Shown: positions 1 to 22,401, counted from the first letter of the stretch. The stretch is DNA of 64,000 nt from an uncultured Gammaproteobacteria bacterium (GCA_964503955.1 CAZDCG010000002.1:269047-333046), one strand, 5' to 3'. Made by a program: numbers and translations. Notes: generated by a model from the sequence alone, not told the origin.

Positions 1-1194
1 CGAGATCTTATTGTTAAGCGTCGCAAAAATCTTTAGCGGTTGTTCCAGGCTGCCAAGGTGTTCGACAGGTTGATGCCCAAGCTTAAGCGACCATCCTTCG
101 TGCATATAGACTTCCAGTTGAGAAAAGGTGGTTTCTCCGTCCGGAACATATACTTTCTCTGTTTCCAGATACTTGATTGCCTCCCCTTCTCTAATCTTCT
201 GAATTTCAAGATCGTTTAGAGCGCTCTGAAGCTGATCCAGCTTTTCCGCGGTTGTCTGAGCTTGCGCAATATTTCTCGCAAGATCATCAAGACTTGAGTC
301 AAGTTCTTTCCCTTCCTCATCGGGCTTTGATTGGCTCGACGGAAGCTGTTCTGGAATGCGCACCTCTTTGGCCTCTACTGGTTTCAATCGAAAAGAATGG
401 ATATGAAGATCAGGGTATTTCTTAAGCTCCTGGTATAAAACCAGGACATTCTGCACTGCAGAGGGGCTCAGGTAACTCTCTCCAAGCTGAGGCTGCTTTT
501 GCTCGGTGTAATCATAGATGATCGGCGTGTCCAGCTTGCGCGCTGCCGCTTCGTCAGGCGCAACAGAGCGGATAACAAGCCCGTTATTATCGAGCGAATA
601 AAATTCGTCTTTATATCCTAGTAATACAGTTGAAAGCTTTTCCTTGATATGGACCGTAACAGATCGAGTAGACCAGTCACGTTCAAAACGTACCTCTTCC
701 ACGCTGACCAGGTCGTTGATTGCCTTGGCAAGCGGTTCAGACCTGAAAAACAGCATGTGGGAACGCCTTATAAGCAGCCATGATCTTTTTGATATCTGTT
801 CATTGACCAGCTCCTCAAGGGTTTCAGCCGGAACATCTTTGGCTCCTTTAACCGATACGGAATCGTAGTAAAAGGTTGTTTTAAAGAAAAGGAAGCCAAA
901 CCATGTGATTGTGATGCTCAGACAGGCAATTTGCGTAATACGTAAACGGCGGCTGCTCATCCATTGAAAAATCGGCAAACGCACGCGTTTTTTCCTGTAC
1001 GGGTTGCTGAATTCCTTTTTTAATACATCTCGTTTCAGGAATGACCGGGTATTAGGTTCGGGGGCTGAACGGCCTTTAACGGGAAGCTGATAAGCGCTGA
1101 TGGTATCGATTTTACGCAAAAGAATTCTTGCCACTACCCAGATGACATTTTGATGACGGTAAAATTTCCTTTTATAACGCGATCTTGGCTTCAT
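1..1194 (-). CDS. Cell division protein FtsQ/DivIB-like (POTRA domain), 3'-partial (runs off window start). Not in supplied ORF track because its stop is off-window
   Basis: Manual reverse-complement translation from ATG at 1194-1192 gives an uninterrupted 398-codon frame to position 1 (MKPRSRYKRK...). It has a basic cytoplasmic N-terminus and one TM helix (ITQIACLSITITWFGFLFF). Downstream is a POTRA-like segment (DSVSVKGAKDVPAETLEELVNEQ...LLIRRSHMLFFRSEPLAKAINDLVSVEEVRFERDWSTRSVTVHIKEKLSTVLLGY...SLDNNGLVI), then a coiled-coil tail. An alternative start is M at 960. Confidence 0.5.
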   Translation of the reverse strand, partial: MKPRSRYKRKFYRHQNVIWVVARILLRKIDTISAYQLPVKGRSAPEPNTRSFLKRDVLKKEFSNPYRKKRVRLPIFQWMSSRRLRITQIACLSITITWFGFLFFKTTFYYDSVSVKGAKDVPAETLEELVNEQISKRSWLLIRRSHMLFFRSEPLAKAINDLVSVEEVRFERDWSTRSVTVHIKEKLSTVLLGYKDEFYSLDNNGLVIRSVAPDEAAARKLDTPIIYDYTEQKQPQLGESYLSPSAVQNVLVLYQELKKYPDLHIHSFRLKPVEAKEVRIPEQLPSSQSKPDEEGKELDSSLDDLARNIAQAQTTAEKLDQLQSALNDLEIQKIREGEAIKYLETEKVYVPDGETTFSQLEVYMHEGWSLKLGHQPVEHLGSLEQPLKIFATLNNKIS

Positions 1195-1196
1195 AA

Positions 1197-2234
1197 TCAG
1201 GTGCGTCGCCACCCAAAACCTCGGCGGACACGGCGCATGGATTCGATCAGGTAGGTGATGAAATAGCGGCCGGACAAGGGTTTGTCATGAGCCGGGACCA
1301 GATAGCGTGCATCCCCTCCAAAACCTTTTTTAAACGTTGTTATGCCATAAAAAGGATGCTTTTTATTATCAGTGTCGATTACTCCCCAAAAGCTATATTC
1401 TTTGCAGCCGCGCCGTTTTGCTTCGAGGATAGCCTGCCATTGGAGAAAATGCGCCACAGGTATTTTGCTTGGAATAGATGCTCCATGATGATAGGAACCC
1501 GCATTTCCATAATACATGATAATGGCTGAGGCTAATGTTTTGCCATCATGCTCGCCATTAAAAACAAGGACCTGATCGTCATTCCGGAACTGTTTAACTT
1601 GTTCGCGATACAGTTCGTCAGGATAAGCAATAAAAGAGTGCCGTTTATGCGTTTCTTTCATGAGCGCAAGAAAGTGGTCCAGTGCTTCCACTTCCGTAGA
1701 CGTATTGATTTTGACTCCGTCTTTTTCCGCCCGTCGTATGAGATTGCGCGTTGTTTTACGCATTTGCTTGAGCAAATCCTGCTCGTCTTGATCAAGATCC
1801 AGCTTCCAGACGAGCTCTGAAAGCATATGAATGGGCGAAATACGGAAGCCGGCTTGCTTTAACATCTCTAATGCCTCCGGTGTCCGTTCCCAGTATGGAG
1901 AAATACGGATAAAATCGAATTTATGCTCTTTCCCCCACTTTGTCAGATAAGCGAAAAGCATAAACACTGCTTCTTTGTTGAGATTGCGCAGAACCGGTCC
2001 ATACGGAATGAAGAGAAAATTACCTCGCCGGGCCCTGATTTGTTCGACAAGGCAGATACCCATCAGCGTGTTCTGCTCATACAATCCAAGGCGCAATGTA
2101 CGGAATCCCAGAGCTTCATTCATCTCGGCGGCATTCCATGATTGGAGAAATGGGGGCAAATCCTGTTCAAGCAGAAAGTGTTCCCAATCAGCTTTATTTT
2201 CGATGGTTTTGATTTGAACACGTTGATTGTTCAT
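1197..2234 (-). CDS. FemAB-family peptidyltransferase (FemX-like, aminoacyl-tRNA-dependent peptidoglycan branch formation)
   Basis: 345-aa ORF with a FemAB-like two-GNAT-lobe layout and length. Its start overlaps the stop of the upstream gene (ATGA overlap), implying translational coupling in a cell-wall operon. Confidence 0.65.
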   Translation of the reverse strand: MNNQRVQIKTIENKADWEHFLLEQDLPPFLQSWNAAEMNEALGFRTLRLGLYEQNTLMGICLVEQIRARRGNFLFIPYGPVLRNLNKEAVFMLFAYLTKWGKEHKFDFIRISPYWERTPEALEMLKQAGFRISPIHMLSELVWKLDLDQDEQDLLKQMRKTTRNLIRRAEKDGVKINTSTEVEALDHFLALMKETHKRHSFIAYPDELYREQVKQFRNDDQVLVFNGEHDGKTLASAIIMYYGNAGSYHHGASIPSKIPVAHFLQWQAILEAKRRGCKEYSFWGVIDTDNKKHPFYGITTFKKGFGGDARYLVPAHDKPLSGRYFITYLIESMRRVRRGFGWRRT

Positions 2235-3469
2235 AGCTCATTTTCAAGCAAAGCAAGAAGTCGGCTGCGTTGCTGTTTGGTGAGTTTTCGATGCGTAGGA
2301 AGGTTGAGGCTTGTCTTTGAGAGTTTCTCTGCTCTGGGACAAGTTCCCATGGCATACCCTATTTTTTCCCACATAACGGGTTTGGGAACGATAACTTGAT
2401 TATACCAGTCTCCAAGAAGAAATCCCTGTTTCTGAAAGCGAAGAATCATATGTTCCGGGTCTTCAACCTGCAAAGCGAATCGCAGGTAGACAGGGCTTGT
2501 TTGCGGCTCAACCTGCTGAAACGGAATAGCTTTCTTTTCACAGAACTCAGTATAAGCTTTTGCGTGCGCTCTTCTGATTTCATTGAGACGATGCAGCTCA
2601 TCCAGCTGCTGTTTCGCTAATCTGGCCATGCTTTGAGGCATCAGATACATTGTTTCTTTTGACGATTCGCTTGCGTACTCTTCAGGAGAATAAACTTTAT
2701 TGAGAAGGCGCAATCTTTGACAGATTCTAATCAGGATTTGTCCTATTTTAACGTTGTTCTGAAGACGGCTGAAAACAGGCATGAAGGCTGCATGGAAGAG
2801 ATTTTGCAATACCCAAAAACGCCGAGGACTTGGTAAATCACTCGTAATTTCTGCCATTCGCCTATGAAGATCCTGATTGTTGACCAGAGCCGCGCCTCCT
2901 GAAATGCTGGAGATGATTTTATCCCTTCCAAAGCTGAAAATGGCAATATCGCCGAATGTTCCGACAAGCCTGTTTTTGAAACTGGCGCCAAGGGCATGCG
3001 CGCAATCTTCGATCAGGTAGAGCTTATGCTCTTTGCAAATGGAAAGCAGCTCTTCGATATTGCCGGGGATTCCAAATGTATGCTGTACGATGATGGCTTT
3101 TGTTTTCTCCGTGATCAATGATCGCACTTGATTTGGGTCAATATTGTATGTCTTATCAATATCGGCAAAAACCGGCTTTGCGCCGTTCCATATCACCGCG
3201 TGAGGGACAACAAGACAAGTATAGCCCTGGAGAATGACTTCATCCCCTTCCCCTATTCCGCAAGCTTGAATGGCGGCGAATAATGCTTCTCTTCCTTTAG
3301 AAAACGCAAATCCTTTGCCTGAAGCTCCGTGCAGATCTTCAAATGCATGAACAAAAGCTTGTACGTGCTTTCCGGGTCGTTTTCGCAGCCAGGAGCCGCT
3401 TGCCAATAGGCGCAATGAGAGGAGTTGCTGCCGGATCGTGCTGTTTGGGGCATGTGAAATGGAAATCAT
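2231..3469 (-). CDS. DegT/DnrJ/EryC1/StrS-family PLP-dependent sugar aminotransferase
   Basis: GDEVILQGYTCLVVPHAVIW...; the SFGRDKIIS segment is the expected Schiff-base lysine motif (S-F-x-x-x-K). 412 aa, with stop/start overlaps to both neighbours. Confidence 0.75.
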   Translation of the reverse strand: MISISHAPNSTIRQQLLSLRLLASGSWLRKRPGKHVQAFVHAFEDLHGASGKGFAFSKGREALFAAIQACGIGEGDEVILQGYTCLVVPHAVIWNGAKPVFADIDKTYNIDPNQVRSLITEKTKAIIVQHTFGIPGNIEELLSICKEHKLYLIEDCAHALGASFKNRLVGTFGDIAIFSFGRDKIISSISGGAALVNNQDLHRRMAEITSDLPSPRRFWVLQNLFHAAFMPVFSRLQNNVKIGQILIRICQRLRLLNKVYSPEEYASESSKETMYLMPQSMARLAKQQLDELHRLNEIRRAHAKAYTEFCEKKAIPFQQVEPQTSPVYLRFALQVEDPEHMILRFQKQGFLLGDWYNQVIVPKPVMWEKIGYAMGTCPRAEKLSKTSLNLPTHRKLTKQQRSRLLALLENEL

Positions 3470-5082
3470 ACGTTCTTGAGATACTGCCGAAGCATGGCAA
3501 GAATTTTTGCGGCTCCCCTTCCCTCAAACAAAATAATGGTCTGGTCATCGCAAAGCTCAGCCAGGCGCTTTAATTCGCTTTGCTGCAAAAGGCGGTCTTG
3601 TGAAAACCCGGCGGCTAAAAGCTCGTGCTCGATGATATCATGCTGCGGGGTGGAAAGAATCATGGCGTAATTCGCTGTTTCAGCGATTTTTCTCGCGATT
3701 CGGCGATGGTCTTCATTCGCTTGATCCCCAAGTTCAATAACCTGGTCAAATACGACGATTTTGCGTTTTGTGGTTAGCATGGCAAGATCAGTCAATGATG
3801 TCAGAATGCCATAGGTGTTTGCATTATACGTGTCATTGATGATCAAGGATCCATTCAATTCCTGGATCTCCATTGTGCCTGGCAGAGTTGGAAGGTTATT
3901 TAACGCAGACTGAATCGTCTCTTGCGGCAAACCGATTGACCTGGCAACGGCAATCGCACCCGCCAGATTTGTCAGATGGCCGCGGCCAAAGATTGGTGCT
4001 TCGTAATCTGCTCCGTCCAACGAAAAGACTGTTTTACCTGAGGCAAAACGAACGCTCTCGGCCTTAAAATCTGATCCTTCAATGACGCTGAACGTTTTTG
4101 GTAGCATATCCCTTCTTGAGAAGGCCTGCATAAGCGGCTGGCTATCTGCATTGGCAAAAATTTGTTTTTCATCGCCTATTGCTTCAACTAATTCAAACTT
4201 CGTTTGTTCTATTTCCGCGAGAGAACCAAACAACGATAAGTGCTGATTGGACAACCCCGTAAGAACACCGTAGGACGGCGAAACCAGCTCGCAAATGCGG
4301 GCAATCTCCCCTTTTCGATAGGCACCCATCTCAACGACAAAAAACTGATGATCCGGGTGAAGCTCATCAATAATTAACTTTGCAATTCCCGCATCCACAT
4401 TCAGGTGTTCAGGTGTTTTTAGCACCTTATGCGTGGACGAGAGCAAGTGCGAAAGGTAATCTTTCATGGTTGTTTTTCCATAGCTGCCGGTGATCCCGAT
4501 GACAACAAGCTTTGGATGCGATTTGATTTTCTGCCGGGCCTTTGCCATTCGTTTTCTCATAAGCAGCAGATTCGGCAAAAAGGCAATGCCAAAGAGCAAA
4601 AGAACAATGAAGGGCTGAAGAATTTCAAGAACAAGCAATTGTTCCGGCCAGAACTGGTATTGATAGGCAATCCATATCTCCAATGCCAGTGCCGCGACAA
4701 AGAGAAACCAGATTTTTTTTGTGAATGCGGGAAGCCTGAGCATTTTTCGGCGGTATTGATGGATGGAATGGAGAACCTGAACAAGGAAAAAGAGGCTTAG
4801 GGCGACAAAAAGCAAATCAAAGACACCTTTTGGACTTGGGATATTGGCGCGGAGCAAGAGCTCCCAGGCGAGAAGAAATCCGATCAGAACTGAACGGTAG
4901 GAAGAAAAAAATAACTTCCAGAAAACAGGGGTCTTCATTTCATCAAAAATTCTGTCCGGACGATACTGCTTTAGCTGGATATAGTGGAGCCAAATCAAAA
5001 TACTGCGTCCAGCTGCGGCGATCCACAGCAGGCTGAATAGAAAAAGCGCGTACTGAAAATAAAGATGAACGAGTTGATTCAT
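3466..5082 (-). CDS. MurF/MurE-like Mur ligase whose canonical N-terminal domain is replaced by a ~170-aa polytopic membrane domain
   Basis: P-loop VVIGITGSYGKTTMKDYL (Mur-ligase GxTGTNGKTT motif) at about residue 195, then INDTYNAN and GRGHLTNLAGAIAVARSIG (MurF/MurE signatures). The N-terminal 180 aa holds about 5 hydrophobic helices (LVHLYFQYALFLFSLLWIAAAG etc.). The 538-codon frame is open throughout, so the fusion is unlikely to be a start-codon artefact. Confidence 0.7.
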   Translation of the reverse strand: MNQLVHLYFQYALFLFSLLWIAAAGRSILIWLHYIQLKQYRPDRIFDEMKTPVFWKLFFSSYRSVLIGFLLAWELLLRANIPSPKGVFDLLFVALSLFFLVQVLHSIHQYRRKMLRLPAFTKKIWFLFVAALALEIWIAYQYQFWPEQLLVLEILQPFIVLLLFGIAFLPNLLLMRKRMAKARQKIKSHPKLVVIGITGSYGKTTMKDYLSHLLSSTHKVLKTPEHLNVDAGIAKLIIDELHPDHQFFVVEMGAYRKGEIARICELVSPSYGVLTGLSNQHLSLFGSLAEIEQTKFELVEAIGDEKQIFANADSQPLMQAFSRRDMLPKTFSVIEGSDFKAESVRFASGKTVFSLDGADYEAPIFGRGHLTNLAGAIAVARSIGLPQETIQSALNNLPTLPGTMEIQELNGSLIINDTYNANTYGILTSLTDLAMLTTKRKIVVFDQVIELGDQANEDHRRIARKIAETANYAMILSTPQHDIIEHELLAAGFSQDRLLQQSELKRLAELCDDQTIILFEGRGAAKILAMLRQYLKNV

Positions 5083-5084
5083 GG

Positions 5085-5870
5085 CTACGTGGTTGATTGC
5101 CGGCGCACAAAAGCGTCTATTTCCTTCGCAAGCTCTTGCGGAATAAGGCGGACCAGATTATGTTTTTGTCCTTGAAATGTCGTAAGCGTGCTGTTTGGAA
5201 TCAAGGCGTGCATTTTCTCCGCGTCGGACAAAGGCGTGGCACCGTCTTCTGTTCCCCACAAAAGCAGGGTTTCAAGCGTGATTTGCGGCAAGAATGGACT
5301 AAGATCTTCTTCCAATACTTTGACAATAGTCTGCTTCATCACGCCTGTGGCATTGAAATAATCTTTCGATCCCGCCAAACGGTACAAGAGTTTCTTTGCT
5401 GCGGTTTCAGCCATTCTGACTCCAGGAAGGCGGAATAGCTTCTTGCCAGCCCGCGCTGCGATCGACAAAGCTTTCCGTTTAGGCGTGCGGTCATTCGTTT
5501 TGATGCCGGCTGATGCGCAGAGAATCAGCTTTTCAATCTGATAGGCGTGGTTGATTGCATACTTGATGGAAACACGTCCGCCAAAAGAATGGCCGAACAG
5601 GATCATGGACTTGATGTTTTTTGCCTCAAGAAATGCATGTACCCAGTCTCGGTAATCGGAAACCTTCCACGCCTGCGGCGGCGGAGGTGTCTGCCCAAAG
5701 CCGGGAAAATCGGGAACAATGACCGTATACCCATGCTTTGCCAATGCAGGTCCAAGCTCCGTGTAATGCGAAGAATCTGCCGGCCATCCATGAAGCATGA
5801 GAATGGTTCTTGAACCATTCCCCCATTCCCGATAATGCGCTTTTGTTCCGTTAACGGCGACACTGGGCAT
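5085..5870 (-). CDS. alpha/beta-fold hydrolase
   Basis: HGWPADSS...GHSFGG nucleophile-elbow (GxSxG) motif. Start trimmed to the internal Met (MPSVAVNG) because the longer ORF (to 5963) would overlap serS by 92 bp. Confidence 0.6.
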   Translation of the reverse strand: MPSVAVNGTKAHYREWGNGSRTILMLHGWPADSSHYTELGPALAKHGYTVIVPDFPGFGQTPPPPQAWKVSDYRDWVHAFLEAKNIKSMILFGHSFGGRVSIKYAINHAYQIEKLILCASAGIKTNDRTPKRKALSIAARAGKKLFRLPGVRMAETAAKKLLYRLAGSKDYFNATGVMKQTIVKVLEEDLSPFLPQITLETLLLWGTEDGATPLSDAEKMHALIPNSTLTTFQGQKHNLVRLIPQELAKEIDAFVRRQSTT

Positions 5871-5871
5871 T

Positions 5872-7158
5872 TTATTGGTTATTAATCGACTCCTTGCCGT
5901 CCATATACGGACGCAGAGCCTGAGGGATATAGATAGACCCGTCTTTTCTTTGATGATTTTCAAGAAGCGGAATCAGAATACGCGGAGTGGCAACAAGCGT
6001 ATTGTTGAGTGTATGGCAAACCTTCATTTCGTCGCCGTCTTTATAGCGGATATTCAGCCGGCGCGCCTGCCAATCGCCCAGATAGGAAGCAGAATGCGTT
6101 TCCCCGTAACTGTTGCGCGACGGCATCCATGTTTCGATGTCATACATGGAGACCTTTCCTGCTCCCATATCTCCCGTCGCGATGCGTAAGACACGATAAG
6201 GCAGCTCCAGGCTCGAGAGGAAATCCTCCGCGTTTTTGACCAGCTGCTCAAGCATATCAAGACCAGCTTCTTCATCCGCTTTCATGATCACAACTTGCTC
6301 AACTTTCTGGAATTGTTTTACGCGATACAGTCCATGCGCATCCTTGCCATAGCTGCCCACTTCCGTGCGGAAACATGCCGTAGCCGCGCAATAGAGGCGA
6401 GGAAGATGGCCAGACTCCAGCACCTCATCCGCGTGATAGCCGCAAAGAGGCACTTCAGACGTGCCGATCAAATAGAACGGCGGCTCTTCACGGTCCGTTT
6501 TCTGATCAAAGACGCGGAATGTTTCAGCTTCGGCAAAGGGAAAATGCCCGCTCCCCTGAAAAAAGCGTTCCTTTGCCAAAACAGGGACGTTTAGTTGCGT
6601 AAAGCCGCGCTGTCGAAGGAATGAAAGCGCGTATTGCTGCAAGGCCGTTTCAAGCTGAGCAGCTTCGTTTTTTAGCACAAATCCCCTTGTCCCCATGAGT
6701 TTGACGCCTCGCTCGACATCAATCAGGTCATGCATGAAACCAAGTTCGATATGGTCCTTGGGGGCAAAATCAAAGTCAGGCTTCTCCCCGACTTCTCTGA
6801 CAACGGTATTTGCTTCTTCACCTCCAACCGGCGCAGACGGATGAGGAATTTGAGGGATACGCAAAAGGAGGTTCTTGTATTCATCATCCACGTTCTGAAG
6901 AGCATCTTTTGCTGCATGCACTCTATTTGCGATTTCCTTCATCTCACTGATCATCGCCGCTTTTTCTTCTCCTTTTGCTGAGGCGATATTGTCCGAAGCC
7001 CTGTTTTGGACGGCCTTTAGCTCCTCGTATTCTTTAAGCAGATTTCGTCTTGATTCATCCAACTCCAGAAATCTGGACAGATCCAGTTCAATGTTCTTTT
7101 TGGAGATCGCATCTTCTACAAGCTCCCGATGTTCCCGGACAAAGCGAATGTCTAGCAT
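5872..7158 (-). CDS. serS: Seryl-tRNA synthetase
   Basis: N-terminal coiled-coil arm MLDIRFVREH...LDESRRNLLKEYEELKAVQNRASDNIA and class-II core (FRTEVGSYGKDAHGLYRVKQFQKVE; GDMGAGKVSMYDIETWMP). Start set at MLDIRF by homology to the canonical SerRS N-terminus; the 53-codon upstream extension in the ORF track is treated as leader. Confidence 0.9.
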   Translation of the reverse strand: MLDIRFVREHRELVEDAISKKNIELDLSRFLELDESRRNLLKEYEELKAVQNRASDNIASAKGEEKAAMISEMKEIANRVHAAKDALQNVDDEYKNLLLRIPQIPHPSAPVGGEEANTVVREVGEKPDFDFAPKDHIELGFMHDLIDVERGVKLMGTRGFVLKNEAAQLETALQQYALSFLRQRGFTQLNVPVLAKERFFQGSGHFPFAEAETFRVFDQKTDREEPPFYLIGTSEVPLCGYHADEVLESGHLPRLYCAATACFRTEVGSYGKDAHGLYRVKQFQKVEQVVIMKADEEAGLDMLEQLVKNAEDFLSSLELPYRVLRIATGDMGAGKVSMYDIETWMPSRNSYGETHSASYLGDWQARRLNIRYKDGDEMKVCHTLNNTLVATPRILIPLLENHQRKDGSIYIPQALRPYMDGKESINNQ

Positions 7159-7166
7159 ATATGAGC

Positions 7167-7205
7167 AAAAAGCTCGGGAAACGTGTGATATTTCGAGCTT
7201 TTTTG
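7167..7205. promoter_or_regulatory. Hairpin (A5-GCTCG-17 nt loop-CGAGC-T6) 8 nt upstream of serS start codon; possible leader attenuator or bidirectional terminator
   Basis: caaaaagctcg ggaaacgtgtgatattt cgagcttttttg is a stem extensible by A:T pairs, with an A-tract on one side and a T-tract on the other. No Shine-Dalgarno lies between it and the serS ATG. Confidence 0.25.
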
Positions 7206-7295
7206 CGGAAAAATGTGGATGTATCTTACCAGAATTGCCCTGATTTGCCCAGAAATACTTGACATTTAATAAGAAATATGATACAAAATATTTCT

Positions 7296-7300
7296 GGAGG
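7296..7300 (+). promoter_or_regulatory. Shine-Dalgarno GGAGG for small plus-strand gene
   Basis: GGAGG 4 nt upstream of ATG at 7305. A TTGACA at 7258-7263 with an AT-rich downstream region could be a -35/-10 promoter. Confidence 0.35.
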
Positions 7301-7304
7301 TCAA

Positions 7305-7532
7305 ATGAAGAAGTCACGCAAGTATCTGGCTGGGTTTCTGGCTCTTTCGTCCATTCCGATGCTTGGGTTCACCTGGATCCTAAGCATGCACATGATTATC
7401 TTCGCCGGCTTTATCCTCATGGGACCTAAGGAGGAGAAGCTTGGCGAGTCGGTCACGAGGGCCGGCCGGTGGTGGCTTAATATGTCTCTCATCGCTCTGG
7501 CTGGTGTCATCCTGATGAGCCTGCTGCGATGA
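7305..7532 (+). CDS. Small (75 aa) two-TM membrane protein, hypothetical; only plus-strand gene in the window
   Basis: MKKSRKYLAGFLALSSIPMLGFTWILSMHMIIFAGFILMG...WWLNMSLIALAGVILMSLLR. It has a basic N-terminus, two hydrophobic helices, an RBS and a downstream hairpin+T-tract. It lies in the only gap (7159-7601) between minus-strand genes. Confidence 0.4.
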   Translation: MKKSRKYLAGFLALSSIPMLGFTWILSMHMIIFAGFILMGPKEEKLGESVTRAGRWWLNMSLIALAGVILMSLLR

Positions 7533-13585: not shown

Positions 13586-14641
13586 TTAGCGGATAATGGA
13601 TTCCTGCTGCGTTGAAGCAAGGATAAGCTCAGACATGCCTTCCAAATCTTCAAGGATAATCCCGGTACCGCGCACGACGCAGGTTGCGGGATCATCAGCT
13701 ACTTGAACAGGAATGCTCATGGCTTCTGCCAGGGCCTGGTCAATCCCTTTAAGCTGAGCTCCAGCGCCAAATAGCGTAATTCCACGCTGGTAGATATCCG
13801 CCACAAGCTCAGGAGGCGTGCTTTCAAGCGTTGCTTTGACATTTTCCATCAGAAAGCGGAGCGTTCTGCTCGTGGCATGACGCACTTGTCCGTCGGTAAT
13901 CGATACTTCCTTTGGAAGGCCGGAAATCAGATTTCTTCCTCGTACTTTCATGTCCAGCGACTCCGGCAACGGCATGGCGGATCCGATTTTGATTTTTGCC
14001 TGTTCCGCCATGCTTGATCCAAGAAGCATATTGAATTCATGGCGGGCGAACTGGATAATGTCATGATCAAACTGAGAGCTTGCCAGATGCAGGCTTTTCC
14101 AGGTCACAACGCCGCTGAGCGAAATGACGGCGATTTCAACTCTCCCCCCGCCGATATCAATGACCATGGTTCCATGCGGTTCCTGAATCGGCAGACGCGC
14201 GCCAATCGCGCCGGCAATGATTTGCTCGGTCAGCAAAACTTCGCGCGCTCCGGCTCCAAGCACGGCATCTTCAACAGCTTTTTTCTCTACTTCCGTCAGG
14301 TCCAGAGGAATTGCCACAAGAATCCGGGGACGCGGCAGAAAATTGAATTGTTCTGAGTGGATTTTGTCAATGAAATACCGGATCATCTTTTCACAAACTT
14401 CAAAATCCGAGATGATTCCCTCCTGCAGCGGTGAAACGACCTCTATATGGGAAGGTGTTTTCCCCATCATTTTCTCGGCTTCCTTTCCCACCGCGAGAAT
14501 CTGATCAGTTTTCGTATTCAATGCGACAACGGACGGCTCATTGATCAAAATACCCCGGTCTTTCACGTAAATCAGGGTATTCTTTGTTCCTAAATCGATG
14601 CCGATATCACGCGAGAATCGGCCTAAAAGCCGGTTGATCAT
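13586..14641 (-). CDS. mreB: Actin-like rod-shape protein MreB (copy 1)
   Basis: IGIDLGTKNTLIYVKDRGILINEPSVVA...MVIDIGGGRVEIAVISLSG is the canonical MreB signature. Confidence 0.9.
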   Translation of the reverse strand: MINRLLGRFSRDIGIDLGTKNTLIYVKDRGILINEPSVVALNTKTDQILAVGKEAEKMMGKTPSHIEVVSPLQEGIISDFEVCEKMIRYFIDKIHSEQFNFLPRPRILVAIPLDLTEVEKKAVEDAVLGAGAREVLLTEQIIAGAIGARLPIQEPHGTMVIDIGGGRVEIAVISLSGVVTWKSLHLASSQFDHDIIQFARHEFNMLLGSSMAEQAKIKIGSAMPLPESLDMKVRGRNLISGLPKEVSITDGQVRHATSRTLRFLMENVKATLESTPPELVADIYQRGITLFGAGAQLKGIDQALAEAMSIPVQVADDPATCVVRGTGIILEDLEGMSELILASTQQESIIR

Positions 14642-15921: not shown

Positions 15922-17037
15922 CTAGTTGAAGACAGAACCGATCGCGTTAAGAATGGAACCTCCGTATGTGGCTAGATCTTTAACCGTGATAAAGACAATC
16001 AAGGCCATCAAAAGCGTGAATCCAAGTATATGGATCCAGTTTTCAAGCCCTACGCGCATTTTTCTGCCGCGCACTTTCTCAAAAATAATCAGTGCAAGGC
16101 GGCCACCGTCAAGCGCGGGAATAGGCAAAATGTTGATAACAGCCAGATTAAGCGACAACAAAGCCGTAAACTGAAGCAGCTGCACGATCCCCTGTTTTGC
16201 GACTTCGCCTGTCATGACAGCAATGCCGACCGGTCCTGCCACGTCCGCCTGAACACCCTGTCCGGTCACGAGTTTGCCAATCAATTGTCCGAAACCAGCA
16301 ACAATCAACCAAAGGAGCTCGGCGACTTTTGCCAGGCCCACAAATGGCGCCAAATACCAAGGATAAGAGACCGTACCGGTTTCAAGCAAAGCAACGCCGA
16401 TGCCGGGCTTTCCTGTTTCCTGGAGTTCTACCGGGGTAATCTCAAAGGCAAGCTCTTGACCATCACGCTCAATCAGAATCTGGCTGACAGATCCGCTTTC
16501 AGCTGATGCAAAGATTGAAGTCATCTCATCGGTTGTCCCCACGGCAGTTCCATTCACGGAACGGATGATATCTCCGGCCTGAATTCCAGCGTTCTTTGCC
16601 GGACTGCCTTCAACGGGTTCAACAACCTGGAGGGTTCGGTCTTCAATCCGCGCGAATCGGGAAATCTCGCTGTCCTGCGGCAAGGCGGTGCGGGCTCCCA
16701 TAGCAAGGACAAGACTGATAAGCACATACCCCAGAAAAACATTCATCAAGACTCCGGCACTGACAATGAGGATTTTTTGGCCGAATGTTCGATGTGAAAA
16801 ACTGCGCGGATGTTCCGGTTCATTCCCGTTTTCGCCTTTGATTTTCACGTAGCCGCCAAGCGGCAGCAGATTAATCGCGTATCGTGTTTCACCCTTGGTT
16901 CTGGAAAAGAGTCTTGGGGGGAAACCGATGCCGAATTCTTCGACATAGCAGCCGGATCTTTTTGCGGCAATAAAGTGACCCAGCTCATGCACAAGCACGA
17001 GCAGGCCAAGGACAAGAATGAAAATGAGAAGAGTCAT
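15922..17037 (-). CDS. rseP: RIP metalloprotease RseP (site-2 protease) with PDZ domain
   Basis: HELGHFIAAKR (HExxH in TM1), a PDZ segment (GSPAKNAGIQAGDIIRSVNG), a C-terminal LDGG motif. Confidence 0.85.
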   Translation of the reverse strand: MTLLIFILVLGLLVLVHELGHFIAAKRSGCYVEEFGIGFPPRLFSRTKGETRYAINLLPLGGYVKIKGENGNEPEHPRSFSHRTFGQKILIVSAGVLMNVFLGYVLISLVLAMGARTALPQDSEISRFARIEDRTLQVVEPVEGSPAKNAGIQAGDIIRSVNGTAVGTTDEMTSIFASAESGSVSQILIERDGQELAFEITPVELQETGKPGIGVALLETGTVSYPWYLAPFVGLAKVAELLWLIVAGFGQLIGKLVTGQGVQADVAGPVGIAVMTGEVAKQGIVQLLQFTALLSLNLAVINILPIPALDGGRLALIIFEKVRGRKMRVGLENWIHILGFTLLMALIVFITVKDLATYGGSILNAIGSVFN

Positions 17038-17046
17038 GTCAATGCG

Positions 17047-17619
17047 TTAAATGGTCATGATGCGCTCGGCTTTTTTCTCGGCGAGCTCATTGATTTCATC
17101 AACTTTCTGACCGGTAAAATCCTCCAGCTGTTTAAGGTAACGGAACTTGTCGTCTTCGGTGATCTCTTTTTCCTTTTCCGAATGAAGAATAGATTCTTTG
17201 ACCTTGTCTCGAACCTGGCGGATCGTGACGCGGGCCTTTTCTGCTTTTTGATTGAGAATCTTAACAAGATCTTTGCGGTTTTCTTCTGTCATTGGAGGCA
17301 TTGGGATGCGTACTACTTCCCCGTCATTTACGGGGGTATAGCCAAGGTTCGCTGAAGTAATCGCTTTCTCAATGGGTTTAAGAAGACTTTTATCCCAAGG
17401 AGCGATCATGATGGTTTTGGTATCCGGAGTCGTAATAGTCGCAAGCTGTTTGATCGGCATCATGGTTTCGTAGCTTTCAACAAGAACGCTGTCGATCAGC
17501 TCAGGATTGGCCTGGCCGGTTCTCATTTGCGAAAGTTCCTGCTTAAAATGTTCGATTGATGCGGAAAAAAGCGGTTTTTGAGCGTCGATGAATGGATTCA
17601 TAAGCCAAGATTGGATCAT
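17047..17619 (-). CDS. frr: Ribosome recycling factor
   Basis: Typical RRF sequence (SVLVESYETMMPIKQLATITTPDTKTIMIAPWDKSLLKPIEKAI...GEVVRIPMPPMTEENRKDLVKI). The true start may be the Met at about 17601. Confidence 0.9.
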   Translation of the reverse strand: MIQSWLMNPFIDAQKPLFSASIEHFKQELSQMRTGQANPELIDSVLVESYETMMPIKQLATITTPDTKTIMIAPWDKSLLKPIEKAITSANLGYTPVNDGEVVRIPMPPMTEENRKDLVKILNQKAEKARVTIRQVRDKVKESILHSEKEKEITEDDKFRYLKQLEDFTGQKVDEINELAEKKAERIMTI

Positions 17620-17632
17620 TAGTGTTGCCTTA

Positions 17633-18655
17633 TTATAGCGTAATTGCGCCTAAAAACAACTCCTGGGGTGTTTTCGGATGAATAAGGAGGGTGCGCGGAA
17701 CAAGGGTTCTTGGGAACGGGATGGTTTGCCATGACTGCCCCGCATTATCCGACTTATAAAGCACGGCCTGGTTTGCGTAGTAAATGATCGAAGGATTTTG
17801 CGGGTCCATGCCAAGAACGAGCGGAAGGAGTCTGGAATCATCCAGAAGAAGGTTCAATTTTGACCAGTTATTTCCCCCGTTCAACGAGCGGTAGAGACCG
17901 TCGCGCCCCAGTAAAAGCAGTTGGTCAGGATCATTCGCATGCGCGATCAGATCATTGAGCAATACCGTATTGCTGTAGACATAGGTCGAACTTTTTACAG
18001 GCATTTCAAGCGTTTTCCAGTTTCGTCCGTAATCTGAAGAGGAGTGGATCGAAAGCGTCGTCAGCGCGTAGATGATGGTCCCTGTCGGGATGAGCTTGAG
18101 CACAGGATGCTCGAATGTATAGACATTCTGCCAGGTGGTGCCGAAATTATCACTGCGAATGAGCGTTCCATTCGTCAGGGCGGCCATGATTGATCCCTCA
18201 TTGCGGCGGTCAAAAGCAATGTCGGAAATGGATGCGGTTGAAGGATTCGTATAAATCAGTTTCCAGCTCTCTCCCCCGTCGCTGGTTAAGAAAATCTGAT
18301 CATCGCGCGCGGCCACAACAGTCAAGTCATCCATGGATGAGATATCAATTGTTTGCACGCGTCCGGAGGTTGTGACAGGAAACCAGGTTACTCCGCGATC
18401 CTCGGTTTTAAAAATGCCTCGATCCTGCGTAGCGGCGAAAAGCAAGTCCGGATTTTCAAATGACTGTACCAGATCAAGAATATCGCTTGAAGCAAGCGTT
18501 CCGGCGCGGCCCTGAAAAGAAATAAGGCTCCTCTGTTCCCATGTCTGGCCGGCATCGGGTGAATACCAAATTCCTCCGGACGCGGGCGTAAAGCAGCTCA
18601 CTCCCAAGAGAGGCAGCAGCAAAATACTAAGCATTCTTACTCGGGCAACGTTCAT
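17633..18655 (-). CDS. Secreted BNR/Asp-box repeat beta-propeller protein (Ycf48-like / sialidase-like), probable lipoprotein
   Basis: Signal peptide ending LLGVSC; six SxDxGxxW repeats (SPDAGQTWE, SDGGESWK, SDNFGTTWQ, SDYGRNWK, LNGGNNWS, SDNAGQSWQ). Confidence 0.65.
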   Translation of the reverse strand: MNVARVRMLSILLLPLLGVSCFTPASGGIWYSPDAGQTWEQRSLISFQGRAGTLASSDILDLVQSFENPDLLFAATQDRGIFKTEDRGVTWFPVTTSGRVQTIDISSMDDLTVVAARDDQIFLTSDGGESWKLIYTNPSTASISDIAFDRRNEGSIMAALTNGTLIRSDNFGTTWQNVYTFEHPVLKLIPTGTIIYALTTLSIHSSSDYGRNWKTLEMPVKSSTYVYSNTVLLNDLIAHANDPDQLLLLGRDGLYRSLNGGNNWSKLNLLLDDSRLLPLVLGMDPQNPSIIYYANQAVLYKSDNAGQSWQTIPFPRTLVPRTLLIHPKTPQELFLGAITL

Positions 18656-19517: not shown

Positions 19518-20543
19518 TTATTTCGTCGCCAAGACGCTTCTCTTGTACGAATCAAGGTTTTCAAGCGCGATGCCGGTTCCTTTGACCACGCAAAGCAAGG
19601 AATCATCCGCCACATAGGCCGGCACGCCGGTTGCTCGCGTGAACAGCTTGTCGATATTGCGCAAAAGACTGCTTCCTCCAGAAAAAATCATTCCTTTATC
19701 CATGACATCCGCGGAAAGCTCAGGGGGGGTTTTTTGCAAAACGTCCTTGGCGGCCTGGATAATCCCCTCAAGCTGAGGCTGGATTGCTTCCGTAATATCG
19801 TCTGAACTGATACGAATGGTTTTAGGCAGGCCGGTAATCATATCTCTTCCACGGACATCCGTGTAGAGCTTTTCATCAAGATACAAGGCGGAACCGATCT
19901 TTATTTTCACCTGCTCGGCTGTCTGCTCCCCAATCGCCAGGCCGTATTTTTTTCTGATAAATTCAGCAACGGCTTGATCCAGACGATTCCCCCCGATGCG
20001 TACGGAGGTTGAAGCCACAATGCCGCCAAGGGAGATAACCGCGACTTCTGCCGTTCCGCCCCCGATATCAACAATCATATGGCCCGAAGCGCCTCCAATC
20101 GGGATATTGGCTCCGATCGCGGCAGCGACAGGCTCTTTGATGATATAGGCGGCCTTTGCTCCTGCGGCAATAGTGGCATCAATAACCGCGCGCCGTTCCG
20201 TTGACGTAATACCCGCAGGCACGGCCACCATCACCTCAGGCCGGAAAACACGAAGACCTCCAAGAGCCTTATTGATGAAATATCGAAGCATGGCTTCCGT
20301 GGTTTTATAGTCGGCAATCACGCCGTCTTTAAGCGGGCGCGACGCGACAATGGTTTCAGGCGTTCGGCCAAGCATTTCCTTTGCTTCAGCTCCCACGGCC
20401 AGCACTTTCTTATCCAGCGTGGAAATGGCCACTACGGAAGGCTCATTGATAACAATGCCTCGCTTTGGGATATAGACGAGGACATTGGTGGTACCAAGAT
20501 CAATGCCGATTTTTTTGATGAATAGCGACATATCAGTCCGCAA
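19518..20543 (-). CDS. Actin-like MreB paralog (copy 2; Mbl/MreBH-like)
   Basis: IGIDLGTTNVLVYIPKRGIVINEPSVVA...MIVDIGGGTAEVAVISLGG. A full-length MreB, roughly half identical to copy 1 by eye. Confidence 0.85.
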   Translation of the reverse strand: MRTDMSLFIKKIGIDLGTTNVLVYIPKRGIVINEPSVVAISTLDKKVLAVGAEAKEMLGRTPETIVASRPLKDGVIADYKTTEAMLRYFINKALGGLRVFRPEVMVAVPAGITSTERRAVIDATIAAGAKAAYIIKEPVAAAIGANIPIGGASGHMIVDIGGGTAEVAVISLGGIVASTSVRIGGNRLDQAVAEFIRKKYGLAIGEQTAEQVKIKIGSALYLDEKLYTDVRGRDMITGLPKTIRISSDDITEAIQPQLEGIIQAAKDVLQKTPPELSADVMDKGMIFSGGSSLLRNIDKLFTRATGVPAYVADDSLLCVVKGTGIALENLDSYKRSVLATK

Positions 20544-22401
20544 ATCTTATCACATAATCTCTGTCTTGATCGAGTTCGTCAATAATCCGTATACCAGTCT
20601 GATTTTCCGTTGAATAGTCAAGATCTGAAGGCGCAATCGAAATGAGGCGCTTTCCCTGATTTAACGAAATGCGGTACTGATGCGGCTGGGTTCCCGGCTG
20701 TTTTTTCACCGTGAGCGCGTAACGGTGTTCCGTCTTAATCCGATCCTGCAGCCATGGTGGCAGCAGATACGTCAGTTCGGCATAACGCTCCTGCCCAGGC
20801 TCTACGGAAACAAATCCGGCAAAGACGGTTTTATCAAATTCAGCATAAACTTGAGGAGCGACATAGGAGAAAGACTTATCCTGATCCACAAATCCGGTTG
20901 ATTGGATTAATTCGCTTCCTATCGGTACATAGACGCGGACATAGGTACGGTAGCGTGTTGTTCTATAATCAAAGAATCCATTATTTTTGTAGGTCAGACG
21001 CAGCGTTGCTTCGTATTGGCCGTCTTGGCGCTCGCGCACCTGATAGGTTCTTAGACGGTCAACCAAACGGTCGGTTTTTAATGCTCCGATATTCGCATCC
21101 ACGACATAGAGGAAGTCCGTTTCCGATTGCGGAATAGAACCATCCCATTTGTGATCTGTGATGAATGCATTCAAGCCGCTGTCTTTGCTATACAGAAGGA
21201 TTTCACGGCGCGAGAGCGATTGCAAAAAAGCATTGACCACGGCCTGAGCCCCTGCTTCATCAAGATTGAGCACATGATCCTTCAGCACCAAAGAAAGATC
21301 GTTGATGATGGATTTTCGATCCTCCTCGCTGATGCCGATGCGCCAGAACTCCTGTTCAACCCGGTATTGAATCGCGTCAATAAGATTTTCCGGCGTAAAG
21401 GTGATCCCTCCAACAGTCAACGGGCCGGTAATTTCTAATAGTCGCTGGACGATATAAGGCGTTATTGCAATAACCGTATCGATGGAATCATCTCCGGTTG
21501 CCTCCTTATACATGCGTAAAATCTGCTCAGCCGAGCTCGGAAAATCCGGCGACCAGTTCGCATCGCGCAGATACAGCCATTGAACATTCGCGTATCGCTG
21601 AAGAGGCAACGGTGCGGGGATCGTTTCTTTTCCAAGCAATTGGCCATCGACACGGTAAACATCATCGGTGTAGAAGGTGGTAATCTGTCCTTTATCAAAG
21701 CTGATTCGGCCAATGGTTCCAATAAAACCGCCCGTAGGCCGCAGTTCATGCGGATTCTGCAGAAGAACAAGAATATCATGAGGCTGGCCGCTTCCCAGGA
21801 CAAACGGAATCTGTTCAAGATAAGGCTTTATCGCCAGGAATTGATCAGCAAGCTGTTGCAGGCGTGATATAAGTTCGATCAAATCCGATTGAAGGTGTTC
21901 CGGAGCAAGCTGGAGATGAAGGTTTTCAGCCTGTGAAGTGGCATTGACAAGATGGTCTCCAGCCGCAAGCACATCATCATACACATCAAGCAAAAGAGCC
22001 GGAGCGCTGCGAAAATCAAGCGTGTCAAACGAAATCGTGCGAGATAGATTATTTTTCGACAATTCAAAAACCACGGTATTGATTGAGGCAGCAAGAGTTG
22101 TCCCCGCCTTAAGACCTTCTCTATACACCCCGTAATCTGCCCGTACCACCGGTATACCCGCCATCCAGAACGATGGTTTGCGCAGGCGCTCTGCCCGGTC
22201 AAGGGAAGCTTGCAGATCGGCTAAATCCCGCAAGGCGCCGTTGATATCTGACGAGGATAAATCCGCGACAACAGATTCCGCGAGATGCTTGGCTTGAATC
22301 GCGGTGCGGAAACTGAGCGCGAGCAGAACCAAGCTGGCAGTAAGATAAACCGCCAGGATCATAATTGCTGCCATCAATAATGATTTCTTCGCAGATGTCA
22401 T
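20533..22401 (-). CDS. Large membrane-anchored extracytoplasmic protein of unknown function (possibly DUF4012-like) heading a surface-polysaccharide locus
   Basis: A 622-aa frame with N-terminal TM (LLMAAIMILAVYLTASLVLLAL) and no recognisable catalytic motif. It overlaps the downstream GT2 gene and upstream mreB2. The DUF4012 assignment is recollection only. Confidence 0.4.
   Translation of the reverse strand: MTSAKKSLLMAAIMILAVYLTASLVLLALSFRTAIQAKHLAESVVADLSSSDINGALRDLADLQASLDRAERLRKPSFWMAGIPVVRADYGVYREGLKAGTTLAASINTVVFELSKNNLSRTISFDTLDFRSAPALLLDVYDDVLAAGDHLVNATSQAENLHLQLAPEHLQSDLIELISRLQQLADQFLAIKPYLEQIPFVLGSGQPHDILVLLQNPHELRPTGGFIGTIGRISFDKGQITTFYTDDVYRVDGQLLGKETIPAPLPLQRYANVQWLYLRDANWSPDFPSSAEQILRMYKEATGDDSIDTVIAITPYIVQRLLEITGPLTVGGITFTPENLIDAIQYRVEQEFWRIGISEEDRKSIINDLSLVLKDHVLNLDEAGAQAVVNAFLQSLSRREILLYSKDSGLNAFITDHKWDGSIPQSETDFLYVVDANIGALKTDRLVDRLRTYQVRERQDGQYEATLRLTYKNNGFFDYRTTRYRTYVRVYVPIGSELIQSTGFVDQDKSFSYVAPQVYAEFDKTVFAGFVSVEPGQERYAELTYLLPPWLQDRIKTEHRYALTVKKQPGTQPHQYRISLNQGKRLISIAPSDLDYSTENQTGIRIIDELDQDRDYVIRFAD

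Follow-up and report, generated by a model that had tools for sequence, protein, structure and literature searches.

Domain composition of the ligase

The subject of this analysis is a Mur ligase gene on the minus strand of a 64,000-nucleotide (nt) stretch of DNA from an uncultured bacterium labelled Gammaproteobacteria (GCA_964503955.1, CAZDCG010000002.1:269047-333046); this whole stretch is referred to as the window. The gene product, 538 amino acids (aa) long, joins an N-terminal domain of five predicted membrane helices to the ATP-binding and C-terminal domains of a MurF-type ligase, and proteins of this build are called membrane-MurF below. MurF uses ATP to join the C-terminal dipeptide, normally D-Ala-D-Ala, to the MurNAc-tripeptide precursor of peptidoglycan, and domain 1 of the canonical enzyme (~70-80 aa) binds the UDP (nucleotide) end of the substrate. 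Reviews and textbooks describe the enzymes from MurC to MurF as soluble and cytoplasmic, with MraY as the first membrane step. The gene and its parts are located as follows.

3466..5082, minus strand: membrane-embedded MurF-type ligase (predicted), 538 aa, ATG start; Mur_ligase_M and Mur_ligase_C domains, murF model TIGR01143, AlphaFold2, Foldseek
4525..5082, minus strand: predicted five-helix N-terminal membrane domain, aa 1-186; hydropathy, AlphaFold2 helices, domain profile
4951..4977, minus strand: predicted cytoplasmic motif 1, QLKQYRPDR, aa 36-44, directly after helix 1; conservation in 52 homologues
4714..4731, minus strand: predicted cytoplasmic motif 2, PAFTKK, aa 118-123, between helices 3 and 4; conservation in 52 homologues
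3466..4524, minus strand: MurF-type ATP-binding and C-terminal domains, aa 187-538; motifs, MurF alignment

Identity of the ligase

Comparison with Pfam assigned aa 197-380 to Mur_ligase_M (PF08245; E 2.8e-28, 99.7 bits, cut-off 24) and aa 406-494 to Mur_ligase_C (PF02875; E 1e-6, 30 bits, cut-off 28.4), that is, to the central P-loop domain and the C-terminal domain by which the Mur ligase superfamily is defined. The top NCBIfam match was murF (TIGR01143), with 209.2 bits over aa 187-521, and relatives of the protein scored 211-242 bits with the same model. The rival models gave 46-63 bits for MurE (best NF001126, 63.4), 58 bits for MurD and 46 bits for MurC. Membership of MurT was rejected (NF052464, 25.7 bits against a cut-off of 800; no DUF1727 domain; an alpha/beta hydrolase, not GatD, as the neighbour), as was that of cyanophycin synthetase (22.8 bits against 850), and no CapB/PgsB family occurred among the 25 best NCBIfam matches.

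Structural databases gave the same picture. The best sequence match in the PDB was MurF of T. maritima (E 7.8e-36, aa 182-535 aligned to chain residues 73-420), followed by MurF of E. coli and P. aeruginosa. When the predicted structure was compared by Foldseek, ranks 1-10 were all MurF (E 3.5e-23 to 3e-19; top entries 4qf5, 3zl8, 1gg4 and 4cvk), with MurC and MurE appearing from rank 11. Because the murF profile aligns only from position 69 (to position 405 of 418), the canonical N-terminal domain of MurF is absent; profile positions 1-68 are unmatched, and the PDB alignments likewise begin at chain residues 73-75.

The ligase motifs quoted in the initial annotation are all present: GITGSYGKTT at aa 196, GRGHLTNL at aa 366 and DTYNAN at aa 417. 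VVEMGA (aa 249), NQHL (aa 279), TKFEL (aa 294) and IELGD (aa 449) were located as well. In an alignment of 52 full-length membrane-MurF relatives with 26-49% identity, the ligase residues T198, G199, S200, K203, E251, H281, E297, N311, Y419 and L451 are invariant. The conserved MurF-type positions E251, H281, the lysine at aa 295, D416/Y419/N422 and E450/L451/G452 align with MurF of E. coli and T. maritima, so that the P-loop, the Mg-binding Glu, the NQHL His, the Lys at the carbamylated-lysine position (TKFEL), DxxYNAN and ELG all have their canonical counterparts. Judged by its sequence, the ligase is of the MurF type, and not a MurE, MurT, CapB or cyanophycin synthetase, which settles the question of subfamily that the initial annotation had raised.

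The N-terminal membrane domain

Kyte-Doolittle analysis identified hydrophobic segments at aa ~8-30, 86-106, 122-140 and 148-172, and a weaker one at aa 52-76. The AlphaFold2 model contains long helices at aa 2-37, 61-78, 87-111, 122-141 and 146-187, the last of which continues into the ligase. The full-length model has a mean predicted local distance difference test score (pLDDT) of 94.8 and a predicted template modelling score (pTM) of 0.89, and the membrane domain modelled by itself reaches a pLDDT of 95.8; the pTM suggests that the predicted membrane domain has a fixed orientation relative to the ligase. Lys and Arg residues number 4, 6 and 8 in the predicted cytoplasmic loops and 0, 2 and 0 in the others. 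The positive-inside rule is therefore obeyed by a five-helix topology with the N-terminus outside and the C-terminus inside, which would place the ligase in the cytoplasm. Pfam, hydropathy and AlphaFold2 thus bear out the fusion of a MurF-like ligase to a five-helix membrane domain (aa 1-186) that had been proposed for this gene.

The membrane region contains its own conserved residues. Q36, K38 and P118 are invariant in the 52 homologues, and Y40, R44 and T121 are present in at least 90% of them. Since these homologues align across the N-terminal extension with the three residues unchanged, the extension is not a chance upstream open reading frame (ORF). The residues belong to two motifs, both predicted to be cytoplasmic, whose family-wide forms are LFWxYLWQLKEYRxDR after helix 1 and LxxPxFTxK between helices 3 and 4, with the short consensus QLK(E/Q)YRxDR and PxFTxK.

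No Pfam domain was found in aa 1-190 of the window protein or over the membrane domain of five relatives; a precomputed PF27394 assignment on one relative proved to be a faint and unrelated Aq_aa27 match and was set aside. Foldseek found no relative of the membrane-domain fold in the PDB (best E=3, TM-score <0.32). A profile of the domain was run against 1.84 billion representatives of clusters at 50% identity, and 1,191 of these matched at the threshold of E ≤ 0.001, 752 of them at E ≤ 1e-10. Those of the matching proteins that were not obviously truncated measured 480-590 aa, and all of them carried the domain at the N-terminus of a MurF-type ligase; no second architecture was seen.

Membrane-MurF occurs both in the Candidate Phyla Radiation (CPR, Patescibacteria) and outside it. 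The counterparts of the two motifs in non-CPR members are hMfQxNSY (QxNSY) and KKPLVYTxRVKR, and the membrane domains of the two groups are homologous (hhalign probability 96%, E 4e-9, 166 columns). Short-form CPR members (479-489 aa) begin directly at a QLExY motif, followed by WTxK, and have only two or three helices; across the sequences compared, the two motifs are more constant than the number of predicted helices. The subfamily can be defined by Q-x-x-x-Y and (F/Y/W)-T-x-(K/R) in a membrane domain of 125-190 aa fused to a MurF-type ligase, and the window protein has both elements (QLKQYR at aa 36 and PAFTKK at aa 118).

Distribution of membrane-MurF

Among 5.8 billion proteins searched there were more than 100 relatives of nearly full length (~480-590 aa), and most of them covered 94-99% of the query; those with names came from Uhrbacteria, Spechtbacteria, Magasanikbacteria, Staskawiczbacteria and other Patescibacteria. 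In a locus scan with one genome per GTDB species, of which the 80 best loci were retained, a multi-helix N-terminus was found on the ligase in all 80, and about half of these loci lie outside Patescibacteria. The division into CPR and non-CPR loci was drawn from NCBI organism labels together with gene context, and the labels of several metagenome-assembled genomes (MAGs; 'Saccharibacteria', 'Gammaproteobacteria', 'NC10') are possibly unreliable.

The Clostridia carriers comprise Lachnospiraceae, Oscillospiraceae, Acutalibacteraceae and Ruminococcus, and include the cultured Butyrivibrio sp. INlla18, Butyrivibrio sp. FCS014 and Eubacterium yurii ATCC 43715. The Bacteroidales carriers are Alistipes, Rikenellaceae and Muribaculaceae. 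A Synergistaceae MAG and a 5.6-Mb chromosome labelled NC10 also carry the gene, and complete genomes with membrane-MurF include CP066685.1 (Levybacteria), CP066689.1 (Roizmanbacteria) and OZ246405.1. OZ246399.1 and a 661-kb Staskawiczbacteria contig (JAHFKV010000001.1) are further carriers. These loci rule out an oddity confined to Patescibacteria. The fusion is not peculiar to the operon of the window; it is a feature of a large subfamily spread over several phyla. Its presence in related genomes, which had been named as a check, was found; the most constant neighbour in those genomes is an upstream hydrolase that had gone unmentioned.

When ligase regions alone were compared, membrane forms from CPR, Clostridia, Bacteroidales and the NC10-labelled chromosome scored 160-380 bits against one another and 99-146 bits against soluble MurF (Bacteroides finegoldii, 432 aa; Bacillus thuringiensis, 458 aa). 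Even within Bacteroidales, the Alistipes membrane form gave only 109-127 bits with the soluble MurF of B. finegoldii. By similarity, the membrane-MurFs are a group distinct from soluble MurF. The Bacteroidales membrane-MurFs cluster together at 45-58% identity, which argues against a very recent transfer between phyla. One MAG labelled Muribaculaceae (L078) has a membrane-MurF that departs from the rest of the Bacteroidales copies and shares 76-79% identity with those of Lachnospiraceae; the contig is probably mis-binned.

A tblastn search of 72,556 plasmids found soluble murF only and no membrane form. Public records label the membrane-MurFs merely 'Mur ligase family protein' or 'MurF', and targeted full-text literature searching found no description of a membrane MurF; the form is apparently previously undescribed.

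Gene organization in the window

The ligase gene stands between SerRS and hydrolase genes on one side and DegT, FemAB and FtsQ genes on the other.

5872..7158 (mechanical ORF 5872..7317), minus strand: seryl-tRNA synthetase (SerRS); start at 7158 likely, judged from homologue lengths
5085..5870, minus strand: partner alpha/beta hydrolase, ~261 aa from the ATG at 5870; Abhydrolase_1, E 1.8e-30
2231..3469, minus strand: DegT/DnrJ/EryC1-family pyridoxal phosphate (PLP) enzyme, 412 aa; PF01041, E 1.7e-63
1197..2234, minus strand: FemAB-family aminoacyl-tRNA-dependent transferase, 345 aa; PF02388, E 3.4e-36; FemX NF047883, E 3.7e-12
1..1194, minus strand: FtsQ-like gene, cut by the window edge; BLASTP, E 1e-7 to FtsQ of CPR locus L016

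Spacing between the genes is close. Only 1 nt separates the SerRS stop from the hydrolase ATG at 5870, the hydrolase and ligase genes are separated by a 2-nt gap (TAG-CC-ATG), and the translational coupling of the ligase to DegT and FemAB that was initially noted is corroborated by ATGA overlaps at both the MurF/DegT and the DegT/FemAB junctions. Another 2-nt gap (TGA-TT-ATG) separates FemAB from the next ORF. This ORF had been named FtsQ; it has no Pfam match of its own, and it matches at E 1e-7 the L016 FtsQ, which is itself confirmed by Pfam (POTRA_1 and FtsQ_DivIB_C), in agreement with that name. The mechanical ORFs of the hydrolase (5085-5963, TTG start) and SerRS (5872-7317, GTG start) extend too far and share 92 nt; since homologue lengths fit the ATG at 5870 and a start near 7158, these are taken as the starts. 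None of the annotated ORFs in the 64-kb window was identified as murE, mraY or ddl, in a scan that did not include the two middle giant ORFs described at the end or ORFs of <150 aa beyond 12 kb.

The hydrolase has Ser (GHSxGG), Asp and His residues that are invariant in 63 of 63 homologues, and from this triad it is predicted to be catalytically intact. It also has the family-specific motifs LHGW, DxPGFG and DY. The named proteins closest to it are generic esterases and lipases, with scores well under any cut-off, and no N-terminal hydrophobic stretch is visible in its translation (no signal-peptide predictor having been run). The DegT protein matches PF01041 with 215.5 bits and reaches no NCBIfam equivalog cut-off (best 146 against 420); its PDB sequence matches, which are sugar and inosose aminotransferases, are limited to the PLP-binding half (aa ~14-220), and the C-terminal half is divergent. 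The FemAB protein matches PF02388 with 125.4 bits (cut-off 24) and the FemX equivalog with 46 bits against a cut-off of 500. Its PDB matches are FemA, FmhB and FemX, and at 345 aa it is of a short form comparable to the 335-aa Weissella FemX PDB chains.

Gene neighbourhoods in relatives

For each genome a stretch of ~20 kb around the ligase was covered, and the counts of Ddl, Alr and MurF co-occurrence given below hold for those stretches. Neighbouring genes were clustered over 82 loci for the hydrolase and over 39 CPR and 46 non-CPR loci for the downstream genes. The block alpha/beta hydrolase - membrane-MurF - DegT - FemAB is repeated in four related Patescibacteria loci. The hydrolase stands directly upstream of the ligase on the same strand in 70 of the 82 loci (36 CPR, 34 non-CPR) and is an almost obligatory upstream partner of membrane-MurF. 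Apparent hydrolase-ligase fusions in two loci (L047 and L064) were rejected as over-long ORF calls in high-GC DNA, the frame differing from that of the hydrolase.

The downstream genes vary. Of the 39 CPR loci, 32 have DegT and FemAB after the ligase, and no non-CPR locus does, so that the pair is a variable add-on of most CPR loci only. In 43 of 46 non-CPR loci the ligase is followed directly by a Ddl-type gene, and the adjacent Ddl of Butyrivibrio passes the curated D-Ala-D-Ala ligase cut-off. Ddl is also downstream in four CPR loci (L065, L088, L089 and L090; with Alr as well in L088), and in CPR locus L050 a Ddl-like ORF adjoins the ligase on the opposite strand. This second CPR arrangement was reached by way of CPR Ddl genes: a complete Roizmanbacteria genome and Colwellbacteria have the order hydrolase-MurF-Ddl, and Falkowbacteria (L088) has LdcA-hydrolase-MurF-Ddl-Alr. 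Ddl and DegT + FemAB were never found together in the stretches covered.

Further genes are retained around the CPR block. FtsQ follows FemAB in 23 CPR loci, SerRS precedes the hydrolase in 27 of 39, and SerRS and lysyl-tRNA synthetase (LysRS) genes are conserved just upstream. The order MreBCD-PBP2-GreA-LysRS-SerRS-hydrolase-MurF-DegT-FemAB-FtsQ is kept in loci whose MurF identity is only 31-47%.

In three division and cell wall (dcw) clusters, membrane-MurF is the only MurF-like ligase among the precursor genes. The CPR locus L004 reads MraZ-RsmH-FtsL?-FtsI-MurE-PgeF-MurC-x-MurA-[block]-DAGK-MraY-(MurD, MurL)-FtsW-MurG-x-FtsA, and the block supplies the sole MurF-like ligase of the cluster. 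The NC10-labelled locus L047 reads FtsI-MurE-hydrolase-membrane-MurF-Ddl-MraY-MurD-FtsW-MurG-MurC-MurB, with only the hydrolase, membrane-MurF and Ddl between murE and mraY. A complete Levybacteria genome reached through DegT homologues (L091) reads MurC-MurB-MurA-GlmU-x-GlmS-hydrolase-membrane-MurF-DegT-FemAB-MraY-FtsW-MurG-x-FtsA-FtsZ, and between GlmS and FtsZ this complete precursor cluster has DegT and FemAB but no Ddl. In the two CPR clusters, membrane-MurF thus belongs to the run of precursor genes just 5' of mraY. The operon had been put forward as a candidate for a non-canonical pathway; the position in relatives, between murE and mraY in L047 and 5' of mraY in the two CPR clusters, and the adjacency of Ddl, and once also of Alr, point to the ordinary MurF step.

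Several observations in these loci concern neighbouring enzymes. In Falkowbacteria (L088:6600-7544), LdcA (Peptidase_S66; muramoyltetrapeptide carboxypeptidase model, E 5.6e-33) lies directly before hydrolase-MurF-Ddl-Alr, and a peptidoglycan-recycling enzyme is thus linked to this module. The MurE of L004 (3309-4625) is only 438 aa long, with the murE model aligned from profile position 71 and starting at residue 36, and it seems to be without most of the N-terminal UDP-binding domain; its shortness is not a miscalled start codon, because the gap to FtsI is 38 nt. In the same cluster a MurL-type epimerase (MurL_N and MurL_epimerase_C; 16888-18264, minus strand) adjoins MurD, which suggests a route to D-Glu in which L-Glu is added and then epimerised; the CPR locus L016, in contrast, has glutamate racemase. 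In an Altimarinota contig (L092, JBFWVJ010000002.1, 9153-11224), a hydrolase 42% identical to that of the window (E 2e-57) adjoins a DegT homologue (40%), with no Mur ligase or FemAB gene within 10 kb of the pair. This hints that the hydrolase and DegT may work together independently of MurF.

Comparison with known systems

Membrane-MurF shares with canonical soluble MurF (TIGR01143; 1GG4, 3ZL8, 4CVK, 4QF5) the central ATP-binding and C-terminal domains, the catalytic motifs and, in relatives, the dcw position and the adjacency of Ddl. It differs in several respects: the ~70-80-aa domain 1 is replaced by a membrane domain of 125-190 aa, the P-loop of the members compared is GS(Y/F)GKT rather than G(T/S)NGKT, and there is a constant alpha/beta hydrolase partner.

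MurT-GatD (6GS2, 6H5E), the lipid II isoglutaminyl synthase, offers a second comparison. MurT is likewise a Mur-ligase homologue without the canonical domain 1 and has a small hydrolytic partner, and the complex is established to act at the membrane on a lipid-linked substrate, which would be a further likeness if membrane-MurF used such a substrate. On the other hand, MurT is without membrane helices and has a DUF1727 C-terminal domain, and its partner is a glutaminase rather than an alpha/beta hydrolase; its sequence similarity to membrane-MurF is marginal (PDB E 3.5e-6 over ~120 residues only). The 345-aa window gene belongs to the same FemAB family as FemX of Weissella viridescens and FemXAB of S. 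aureus and is about as long as FemX, but the similarity is distant (E 1e-12 to 1e-7), and the window-type FemAB is always preceded by a DegT-type enzyme. To our knowledge, a DegT-type PLP enzyme is not part of the known Fem systems. Weissella FemX acts on the nucleotide precursor.

Fusions of Mur enzymes (MurE-MurF, MurC-Ddl, MurF-Alr) show that MurF tolerates an N-terminal fusion and that the organisation of Mur enzymes serves channelling towards the membrane (PMC10214165); unlike membrane-MurF, they are soluble enzymes joined together. A 2023 survey of >140 genomes for such fusions mentions no transmembrane form (PMC10214165). The NCBIfam fusion models NF008896, NF008897 and NF011171 are among the matches of the window protein.

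Role of membrane-MurF and alternative explanations

Based on the results presented above, the gene probably represents the MurF step of its organism, carried out by a distinct and widespread membrane-embedded subfamily in which domain 1 has been replaced. It is also fairly probable that, taken jointly, the MurF step takes place at the membrane, the two motifs substitute for domain 1 and the product is passed directly to MraY. In such a mechanism, the membrane domain would hold the last cytoplasmic ligase at the membrane beside MraY, and the cytoplasmic motifs may bind the (pyro)phosphate-sugar end of the substrate, a task that normally falls to domain 1. The hydrolase may act with the ligase, either in a complex or in an editing or processing step, and in the window the FemAB-type enzyme could add a tRNA-delivered branch residue before MraY.

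Several points weigh against this assignment. The window ligase scores 209.2 bits, under the curated TIGR01143 cut-off of 288.6 bits. A second, soluble MurF may exist elsewhere in the carrier genomes, of which ~20 kb each was covered, and a soluble MurF of 432 aa is known from Bacteroides, which shares its order with the Alistipes and Muribaculaceae members. Because the domain that binds the UDP end is missing, the identity of the substrate cannot be assumed, and because DegT and FemAB take the place of Ddl in the window, the residue or residues added need not be D-Ala-D-Ala. Finally, the assignment leaves the role of the hydrolase unexplained.

The strongest alternative, though an unlikely one, was suggested by the initial annotation: the ligase would act on a lipid-linked precursor (undecaprenyl-pyrophosphoryl-MurNAc-tripeptide with or without GlcNAc), with the membrane domain and its motifs binding the lipid pyrophosphate. 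The UDP-binding domain 1 is wholly replaced. In its place stands a predicted integral membrane domain whose conserved Lys/Arg-rich motifs lie at the cytoplasmic interface and which is retained across phyla despite a varying number of helices. MurT provides an established precedent of a Mur-ligase homologue without domain 1 that acts on lipid II, and the MurE of the CPR cluster L004 also appears to be without most of its domain 1. However, the dcw gene order is canonical, with MurF before MraY and no sign of a reordered pathway; the 345-aa FemX-like neighbour is close in length to Weissella FemX (335 aa), which uses the nucleotide precursor; and membrane-MurF is far from MurT in sequence (26 bits against a cut-off of 800).

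It is also unlikely that in the DegT-FemAB form, found in the window and other CPR, the ligase adds a product not made by Ddl, with the PLP- and tRNA-dependent enzymes making or modifying the incoming amino acid or dipeptide and so replacing alanine racemase and Ddl. The alternation of Ddl (43/46 non-CPR) with DegT + FemAB (32/39 CPR) downstream of the ligase, never with both, would be expected from such a replacement, and the Levybacteria GlmS-FtsZ cluster, the SerRS and LysRS genes conserved just upstream and the hydrolase-DegT adjacency that persists without a ligase in Altimarinota point the same way. Yet Ddl and Alr may lie outside the ~20 kb covered per genome, Ddl is common in CPR, and the known DegT-family enzymes are sugar aminotransferases or dehydratases, not amino-acid enzymes. 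FemAB classically adds branch residues after MurF, so the order MurF-DegT-FemAB-MraY fits an ordinary role equally well, and the C-terminal MurF motifs are the same as in the Ddl-linked members. A bolder proposal unites these ideas: membrane-MurF and the hydrolase would form a two-protein enzyme at the membrane that finishes the stem peptide, either working on a lipid-linked intermediate or handing its product straight to MraY, with the DegT-FemAB form supplying the terminal residues in place of alanine racemase and Ddl. We regard this as improbable.

Unlikely, too, is an accessory paralogue that exists alongside a soluble housekeeping MurF, such as a module for alternative precursors or for stress/resistance that brings its own Ddl and hydrolase. 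By analogy, the hydrolase-ligase-Ddl block resembles the self-contained alternative-precursor cassettes of van clusters; it lies outside the dcw cluster in most non-CPR loci, and related families of the same order have soluble MurF. Against this, membrane-MurF fills the murF slot of three dcw clusters (L047, L004 and L091) that contain no other MurF, and it is present in CPR genomes so small that duplicate pathways are unlikely. The grouping of the Bacteroidales members suggests long residence over recent transfer, no membrane form was found on the 72,556 plasmids, and the adjacent Ddl scores as an ordinary Ddl, not as a Van-type ligase.

The chance of an annotation artefact, with the true start at an internal in-frame Met (MRKRM, which does exist but at aa 175 rather than near residue 168 as initially given) and ~170 non-coding codons upstream, is negligible, since that region is conserved in >1,000 cluster representatives with invariant residues and folds at a pLDDT of 95, while a start at aa 175 would leave MurF without any N-terminal domain and the 2-nt junction to the upstream gene suits the long form.

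Implications

The membrane-MurFs run counter to the textbook view of soluble Mur ligases, a view that shapes structural work on MurF and antibiotic discovery, and they are numerous: the CPR-type domain alone accounts for ~1,200 clusters at 50% identity, to which Clostridia, Bacteroidales and others are added. If membrane-MurF is the sole MurF, substrate recognition at the last cytoplasmic step must differ in these organisms, and precursor synthesis would include the hydrolase as a component so far unrecognised. If a lipid-linked substrate or direct hand-over were combined with replacement of the Ddl product, the peptidoglycan precursor would be finished differently across a large part of the bacterial tree. 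The findings are also relevant to wall construction in Patescibacteria and to what the conserved pairing of DegT with FemAB means. The cultured anaerobes that carry the gene (Butyrivibrio, E. yurii) make the question directly testable.

Other features of the window

Four consecutive giant ORFs of 3018, 2570, 2502 and 3004 aa occupy 28604-62182 on the minus strand. The two that were scanned contain fn3, FG-GAP, Big_5, DUF7948, SBBP beta-propeller and Ig_Rha78A_N domains and a C-terminal CarboxypepD_reg domain, and the giant ORFs look like surface or adhesin proteins. They are followed by a 578-aa CarboxypepD_reg protein at 62245-63981. Two MreB paralogues are encoded on the minus strand, at 13586-14641 and 19518-20543, the first in an MreB-MreC-(MreD?)-PBP2 elongation cluster. 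Between the second MreB and a cyclophilin gene (20533-25672, minus strand) lie a DUF4012 protein and then three family-2 glycosyltransferases, a stretch that is possibly a surface-polysaccharide cluster.

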